Positions 55,601 to 57,314 of a DNA stretch of 64,000 nucleotides are shown here, in pieces. Position numbers: made by a program. The DNA is from Escherichia coli (GTDB lineage Bacteria > Pseudomonadota > Gammaproteobacteria > Enterobacterales > Enterobacteriaceae): the NCBI RefSeq assembly GCF_017348835.2, contig NZ_CP072317.1. One strand, written 5' to 3'. The stretch's first letter is position 1. Each line of letters begins with the position of its first letter.

Positions 55601-57314
55601 ATGAGTAATATAATCTGTGTAAACTACTAATTGCTTCACCGTCAGTGATTAAATGCGTAGCTGTTCCTTGTCTTATATAATACCTATTTTCAAAATGACA
55701 GACTTCTCCGACACTTTTTATTTCGATTTTTAAAACATGCAGTCCTTCATATGAACATAATGAAATATCTTTTAGTATTTGTTGTTTCAAAGCCTCATTA
55801 AAATTAAATGATTCTATTTTTTGTTTTATGAACAGAAAGTAATTATCTATGTTTTTTGATTGAATTACAGCTTCATGATCAATTCCATTGATATAATAGC
55901 CATTGCACTCAATAGGGGTAACACCATATAAAGTCTTAACTCTGTCTGCCGTAGCTTTGGTATCGGAAACACCAACTAAAATATAACCATTAGATTCTCT
56001 ACCGATGTTATTTATGGCGACAGCCGTTTGGACTATATTAATGAAACATTCTTCGTCTATTTTATTCTCGCCTGAGAGAATAAATAATCCCTGTTTGGTA
56101 ATGACTCCAACTTATTGATAGTGTTTTATGTTCAGATAATGCCCGATGACTTTGTCATGCAGCTCCACCGATTTTGAGAGGCACTGTTGCAAATAGTCGG
56201 TGGTGATAAACTTATCATCCCCTTTTGCTGATGGAGCTGCACATGAACCCATTCAAAGGCCGGCATTTTCAGCGTGACATCATTCTGTGGGCCGTACGCT
56301 GGTACTGCAAATACGGCATCAGTTACCGTGAGCTGCAGGAGATGCTGGCTGAACGCGGAGTGAATGTCGATCACTCCACGATTTACCGCTGGGTTCAGCG
56401 TTATGCGCCTGAAATGGAAAAACGGCTGCGCTGGTACTGGCGTAACCCTTCCGATCTTTGCCCGTGGCACATGGATGAAACCTACGTGAAGGTCAATGGC
56501 CGCTGGGCGTATCTGTACCGGGCCGTCGACAGCCGGGGCCGCACTGTCGATTTTTATCTCTCCTCCCGTCGTAACAGCAAAGCTGCATACCGGTTTCTGG
56601 GTAAAATCCTCAACAACGTGAAGAAGTGGCAGATCCCACGATTCATCAACACGGATAAAGCGCCCGCCTATGGTCGCGCGCTTGCTCTGCTCAAACGCGA
56701 AGGCCGGTGCCCGTCTGACGTTGAACACCGACAGATTAAGTACCGGAACAACGTGATTGAATGCGATCATGGCAAACTGAAACGGATAATCAACGCCACG
56801 CTGGGATTTAAATCCATGAAGACGGCTTACGCCACCATCAAAGGTATTGAGGTGATGCGTGCACTACGCAAAGGCCAGGCCTCAGCATTTTATTATGGTG
56901 ATCCCCTGGGCGAAATGCGCCTGGTAAGCAGAGTTTTTGAAATGTAAGGCCTTTGAATAAGACAAAAGGCTGCCTCATCGCTAACTTTGCAACAGTGCCC
57001 GTACAAGGGAGTGTATGAAAAATGTCTGGTATAATAAGAATATCATCAATAAAATTGAGTGTTGCTCTGTGGATAACTTGCAGAGTTTATTAAGTATCAT
57101 TGCAGCAAAGATGAAATCAATGATTTATCAAAAATGATTGAAAGGTGGTTGTAAATAATGTTACAATGTGTGAGAAGCAGTCTAAATTCTTCGTGAAATA
57201 GTGATTTTTGAAGCTAATAAAAAACACACGTGGAATTTAGGTTTCATTCTGGCGACGTCCGTATTTGCCTTTCGGAAGCATAAAATCGGACGCGTTGTGG
57301 CTCGCTTCAGGTAA

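Follow-up and report, generated by a model that had tools for sequence, protein, structure and literature searches.

The leftmost of the three IS26 copies in this plasmid (copy 1) corresponds in sequence to a known natural allele, IS26-v1 (IS15DI in ISfinder), which is intact here, has already been described and is common. Very likely copy 1 is an inherited IS26-v1 that has long formed the left boundary of the resistance region, with copies 2 and 3 having arrived or moved together with other modules. The analysis covers the window, i.e., the whole 64-kb stretch of DNA, which is sequence of a conjugative IncFII-type plasmid.

The IS26 copies were located by BLAST of positions 56180-56999 against the window and then compared base by base (Table 1). 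Exactly three complete 820-bp copies are present, copies 2 and 3 being identical at every base and copy 1 differing from both at only three positions of the IS (459, 613 and 614). Positions 613 and 614, which are 56792-56793 of the window, read AA in copy 1 and GG in copies 2 and 3, and the pairwise alignment thereby confirms the original prediction that codon 184 of tnp26 encodes Asn in copy 1 and Gly in the other two. The synonymous change that had also been proposed for copy 1 does exist, but it lies at 56638 and not at 56641, three nucleotides away, codon 133 (56639-56641, CGA) being the same across all three copies.

Table 1. Features of the resistance region and of IS26 copy 1, in window coordinates.
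Feature	Position	Strand	Basis or remark
IS1 end remnant, 83 bp, cut by IS26 copy 1	56097-56179		Left outer boundary of the resistance region
IS26 copy 1, assigned to IS26-v1 (IS15DI)	56180-56999	+	BLAST, base-by-base comparison
tnp26 encoding Tnp26 G184N, 234 aa, ORF intact	56243-56947	+	Profile search, base-by-base comparison
Synonymous G>A, IS position 459, codon 132, Pro CCG>CCA	56638	+	Third IS26-v1 marker base
Codon 184 of tnp26	56792-56794	+	AAC (Asn) in copy 1, GGC (Gly) in copies 2 and 3
ISEcp1 3' remnant, 242 bp, truncated by IS26-v1	57000-57241	+	IRR-like ACGTGGAATTTAGG at 57228-57241
Spacer between ISEcp1 remnant and blaCTX-M-3, 127 bp	57242-57368		
blaCTX-M-3, 291 aa	57369-58244	+	CTX-M family, 628 bits
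orf477 (WbuC-family cupin gene), travels with blaCTX-M	58291-58767	-	Profile search
5'-truncated blaTEM, cut by IS26 copy 2	59026-59766	-	Profile residues 43-286 only
IS26 copy 2, reference allele (Gly184), in opposite orientation to copies 1 and 3	59767-60586	-	BLAST, base-by-base comparison
erm(B) segment, 1,797 bp, left end cut by IS26 copy 2	60587-62383	-	
erm(B)	61354-62091	-	Leader peptide at about 62217-62312
IS26 copy 3, reference allele, direct orientation with copy 1	62384-63203	+	BLAST, base-by-base comparison
Tn3-family tnpA 3' end, truncated by IS26 copy 3	63204-63762	+	Profile residues 791-954 of 954

The tnp26 reading frame is intact, with 234 aa, in all three copies, and its product matches the NCBIfam model NF033587 for IS6 family transposases at 278 bits (cutoff 125). 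The DDE residues D78, D138 and E173 are present and, E173 being the catalytic Glu, residue 184 sits 11 residues after it. All copies end in the perfect 14-bp terminal inverted repeats GGCACTGTTGCAAA, located in copy 1 at 56180-56193 and 56986-56999. The sequences flanking copy 1, TTTTGAGA on the left and CGTACAAG on the right, form no target-site duplication, and among the six flanks of the three copies neither 8-bp target duplications nor reverse-complement pairs were found.

In the passage of PMC9412624 that cites Pong et al. 2019, three nucleotides are said to separate IS26-v1 from IS26, two of them producing G184N in the catalytic domain of Tnp26. With copies 2 and 3 serving as comparison, copy 1 agrees with this three-nucleotide definition exactly, and it also has the architecture of IS26 in its length, its terminal repeats and its single IS6-family DDE transposase. 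Minor IS26 variants are numbered v1 to v4, three of which are in ISfinder as IS15DI, IS15DII and IS15DIV, and G184N is present in both IS26-v1 and IS26-v3 (PMC12540391); whether copy 1 is named v1 or v3 is therefore decided solely by the three-nucleotide definition of v1. Existing annotations draw the same line between the copies: on identical DNA in NZ_CP033629.1, the nearest public record found, copy 1 is annotated as WP_001067858.1 and the other two copies as WP_001067855.1, and in OZ026761.1 the equivalent of copy 1 is named 'IS15' and the other copies 'IS26'. The reference IS26 thus carries Gly at position 184, and Asn is not simply the reference residue, a possibility that had been raised together with the original prediction.

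The variant is widespread. An exact 61-mer spanning the AAC codon 184 is found in 4,149 PLSDB records and, in complete E. coli genomes, in 2,232 of the 5,826 replicons bearing that part of IS26. In plasmids of Klebsiella, Escherichia and Salmonella, 1,385 identical IS26-v1 transposases have been counted against 6,266 of IS26, and the occurrence of both on one replicon is common (PMC11137137). Since such co-occurrence is common, and since a module headed by IS15DI has been published (PMC10434037), what we observe here is ordinary.

As IS copies are repeats, which short-read assemblers and polishers handle badly, the three variant bases (AA at 56792-56793, A at 56638) might be thought to be sequencing, polishing or assembly artefacts (e.g., resulting from reads of a different IS26 copy or replicon being mis-assigned to copy 1). 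We consider this so improbable as to be negligible, because the changes coincide with the defined markers of IS26-v1, not with random errors, and because complete plasmids of independent origin, from differing species, countries and laboratories, have the three-base haplotype at this very junction. It lies between the same TTTTGAGA and CGTACAAG flanks in NZ_CP033629.1 (K. pneumoniae, Italy), pT224A (E. coli) and pND45CTX-TC-CTX, and in pV021-b (E. coli, India) the leftmost copy, the sequence of which was partial, has AA at 613/614 and is annotated as WP_001067858.1, the other two copies being reference IS26. An error at 56792-56793, the other possibility named at the outset, therefore finds no support, and chance is not at issue either, because the three differences constitute a defined haplotype recurring identically in independent records.

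A broader view was obtained with a query made up of backbone, IS1 remnant and IS26 through codon 184, for which coverage of at least 80% was required in PLSDB. The backbone-IS1 remnant-IS26 junction is shared by 758 PLSDB records, including large K. pneumoniae KPC-2 plasmids of the IncFII/IncR type. In an evenly spaced sample of nine records holding the whole query, identity was 100.0% in six, 99.9% in one and 99.7% in two, so that in seven of the nine the reference allele is excluded over the junction query, which again speaks against an artefact; base-by-base reading covered three of the nine, just one of these belonging to the seven. The record at 99.9% proved to be a G184N hybrid (p12478-rmtB), and both records at 99.7% carry reference IS26.

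To the left of copy 1, positions 56097-56179 are presumably IS1 terminal sequence; PLSDB records that match only from query position 218 (window 56097) onwards carry 'IS1 family transposase' features there. To its right, we take ACGTGGAATTTAGG to be the IRR of ISEcp1 and the 127 bp that follow to be the typical ISEcp1-blaCTX-M spacer. The blaCTX-M-3 gene is identical to a gene of OZ026761.1 called CTX-M-3 at 100%, encodes the CTX-M-3 residues Asp at 242 and Ala at 80, and differs from CTX-M-15 by one base, at 58093. Interruption of ISEcp1 by IS26 or IS26-v1 upstream of blaCTX-M-15 has been described (PMC9601100). At the other end of the region, the Tn3-family tnpA remnant is annotated as a Tn3-family transposase in OZ026761.1, and the junction of IS26 copy 3 with AAAAATAG, which is the right outer boundary, is conserved in sister plasmids.

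These sister plasmids are K. pneumoniae 4743 unnamed4 (NZ_CP033629.1), pT224A, pEC50-1, pV021-b and pND45CTX-TC-CTX, all IncFII-type and conjugative, and we assume them to resemble the pHN7A8-type F33:A-:B- group. They share with the present plasmid both the left (IS1 remnant and IS26) and the right (IS26 and AAAAATAG) boundaries of the resistance region. Positions 1-60586 of the window are 99.97% identical to NZ_CP033629.1, and the 2,767-bp module between copies 1 and 2 is one to two bases away from those of pT224A, pEC50-1 and NZ_CP033629.1. As for the alleles carried by the sisters, NZ_CP033629.1 has CTX-M-15 and most of the others CTX-M-55, i.e., one-base steps in an otherwise identical 2,767-bp module. 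In the backbone, the sole differences from NZ_CP033629.1 over about 60 kb are a 12-bp insertion of two TAGCAG units (44903-44914), CGT versus AAA (49525-49527) and a SNP at 18947.

Between the fixed outer junctions, the content of the region varies from one plasmid to another: an 839-bp segment separates copies 2 and 3 in NZ_CP033629.1, pT224A and pEC50-1 have a fosA3 module, in one orientation or the other, pV021-b has mph(A)/erm(B), and the present plasmid has a short erm(B) segment. No PLSDB record was found in which the CTX-M-3 module, the inverted IS26 and the 1,797-bp erm(B) segment occur together. The right junction of the erm(B) segment, CAAAATTT followed by IS26, is common to other plasmids, in which the erm(B) region goes on leftwards to include a chaperonin remnant and an IS91-family gene; this longer region elsewhere suggests that copy 2 made an adjacent deletion here, which would be specific to the present plasmid. 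Separately, the junction of copy 2 and the erm(B) segment (60586/60587) was not found as such in PLSDB.

With no target-site duplication at any of the IS26 copies, and with modules that vary among the sister plasmids inside fixed outer junctions, the resistance region is a mosaic, reasonably regarded as having been built by several IS26 events. To that extent the original prediction, which had derived separate IS26 events from the mixture of alleles, stands; the part that does not is the use of the alleles for this purpose, as mixed alleles by themselves are weak evidence of multi-step assembly when wild-type and hybrid IS26 are seen at the same junction in related plasmids. In pEC50-1 the IS1-remnant junction is occupied by reference IS26 (segment 14301-15120), together with the same blaCTX-M module, and reference IS26 is also found at the identical junction in pKPC2_115016. 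In p12478-rmtB the same junction holds a hybrid, with AA at 613/614 but G at 459 (segment 701-1520), and this two-nucleotide haplotype, G184N without the A at 459, may be another of the named variants. Conversely, a copy with only the A at 459 is present in the Acinetobacter baumannii plasmid p1VB280821 (segment 401-1220). Wild-type and hybrid copies at an identical junction imply replacement or recombination of the allele while the site itself stays fixed, and the allele at copy 1 is thus not a fixed historical marker. The backbone of pKPC2_115016 also carries an inserted group II intron reverse transcriptase/maturase gene (ltrA, segment 4525-6192), which none of the other sister plasmids examined has at the equivalent position.

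The same replaced, hybrid and single-marker copies could be taken further, as a sign that the mixture of alleles arose through exchange between copies (by homologous recombination, gene conversion or branch migration) and not through separate acquisitions, making the position of v1 largely incidental. According to PMC9602291, targeted conservative cointegration involves strand transfer at one end, after which branch migration takes place; a mixed 'IS26-v1-Δv2' copy is described there too. Exchange of alleles between copies is to be expected from this route and also from homologous recombination between them. As an account of the whole pattern we nevertheless hold such exchange to be rather unlikely, because the combination of Asn184 in the left boundary copy and reference IS26 at the remaining sites persists across sister plasmids bearing fosA3, erm(B)/mph(A) or 839-bp inserts, a pattern better fitted by inheritance of the boundary copy with later additions than by random exchange.

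According to the preferred reading, inheritance of IS26-v1 at the boundary, copy 1 would be the left-hand boundary IS of a variable resistance region in a lineage of conjugative IncFII-type plasmids of about 62-75 kb, cutting IS1 on one side and the ISEcp1 upstream of blaCTX-M on the other. Copies 2 and 3 would have been brought in with their modules (the truncated blaTEM end and erm(B)) through copy-in cointegration or adjacent deletion, and through targeted conservative joining beside an existing IS26. Both processes are known for IS26, which forms cointegrates only, by two routes: in the copy-in route the IS is duplicated and an 8-bp duplication is generated, with adjacent deletion, releasing a translocatable unit, also being possible, and in the targeted conservative route two IS26 copies react with each other, 100- to 1,000-fold more efficiently (PMC9602291).

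The claim that the G184N variant had been reported to be more active agrees with the literature, in that passages of several papers referring to Pong et al. 2019 (PMC9412624, PMC9019673, PMC8477213 and PMC11137137) credit G184N with enhanced cointegration. The effect may come from improved binding to the terminal repeats, as the Hall laboratory has suggested because residue 184 lies in the loop after the helix that bears the catalytic Glu (PMC8477213). When solved structures of IS6-family transposases were sought by sequence, only marginal matches to retroviral integrase cores came back, over residues 74-144 and short of residue 184. There was also no signal for Asn184 as a family consensus, IS6100 having Pro at the aligned position.

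This lack of conservation is one argument for supposing that G184N has no functional consequence here and owes its frequency to hitch-hiking on successful plasmids and modules, with no gain in mobility; it may be added that a sequence in itself gives no measure of activity and that in plasmids reference IS26 outnumbers v1 about 4.5-fold (PMC11137137). We judge a neutral G184N to be decidedly unlikely, given that the secondary sources agree on experimentally enhanced cointegration and that v1-mediated events were dominant in a study of Salmonella IncHI2 plasmids. It is plausible, by extrapolation from these reports, that copy 1 would make the region more mobile, as had been suggested from the start.

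The three variant bases are at least 206 bp from either end of the IS and, the ends being identical, v1 and reference copies should still be able to react together. Copies 1 and 3, both on the plus strand, enclose blaCTX-M-3, the truncated blaTEM, the inverted IS26 and erm(B) in the arrangement of a pseudo-compound transposon. There is no 8-bp duplication around the whole structure, the outer flanks being TTTTGAGA and AAAAATAG, but such a duplication, which would point to insertion as one unit via the copy-in route, is not obligatory. From what has been published on IS26, these two copies could release a translocatable unit comprising one IS and positions 57000-62383, carrying blaCTX-M-3 and erm(B); a unit of this kind, one IS with the intervening DNA, can leave and re-insert beside another IS26 (PMC9602291).

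A more far-reaching idea is that a hyperactive IS26-v1 is kept as an 'anchor' at the left boundary because it recruits translocatable units more efficiently by the targeted conservative route. We regard this as speculative and improbable; if true, it would explain the fast turnover of fosA3, erm(B), mph(A), rmtB and blaCTX-M alleles between near-identical plasmids, and the fastest diversification of resistance regions would be predicted by where the variant copy sits, not by its mere presence.

In practical terms, copy 1 should be annotated as IS26-v1 (IS15DI) and not as plain IS26, and its three marker bases can help to identify the IS copy involved in subsequent rearrangements, a use already made of them by others (PMC9602291, PMC9019673). 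No new biology is involved: IS26-v1, the hyperactivity reported for it, its presence alongside reference IS26 and the blaCTX-M module that it heads have all been published and are very common.

In comparison with known systems, copy 1 resembles IS26-v1 (Pong, Harmer, Ataide, Hall 2019, FEMS Microbiol Lett 366:fnz031) in its 820 bp, terminal repeats, three bases and 234-aa transposase, with no sequence difference detected. The region as a whole resembles the IS26 pseudo-compound transposons and translocatable units (Harmer, Moran, Hall 2014; Harmer, Pong, Hall 2020) in that directly oriented copies 1 and 3 bracket resistance genes, and differs from them in having no flanking 8-bp duplication, in its internal inverted IS26 and in being bounded by two different alleles.

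A close published relative is the type II blaCTX-M-55 context of PMC10434037, a dominant one, given there as 'IS26(IS15DI)-hp-hp-blaCTX-M-55-orf477-hp-blaTEM-IS26-hp-IS26-Tn2' and accounting for 30% (885/2,947) of E. coli blaCTX-M-55 contexts. The two agree in the order and junctions of IS26-v1, ISEcp1 remnant, blaCTX-M, orf477 and truncated blaTEM, and then in an inverted IS26, a variable insert, another IS26 and a truncated Tn3-family tnpA. They differ in that the gene here is blaCTX-M-3 and not blaCTX-M-55 or blaCTX-M-15, and that the insert between copies 2 and 3 is the 1,797-bp erm(B) segment in place of a short segment or a fosA3 module. Taken together with the contexts reported in PMC9601100, this means that a module with the variant IS at its head has already been published.
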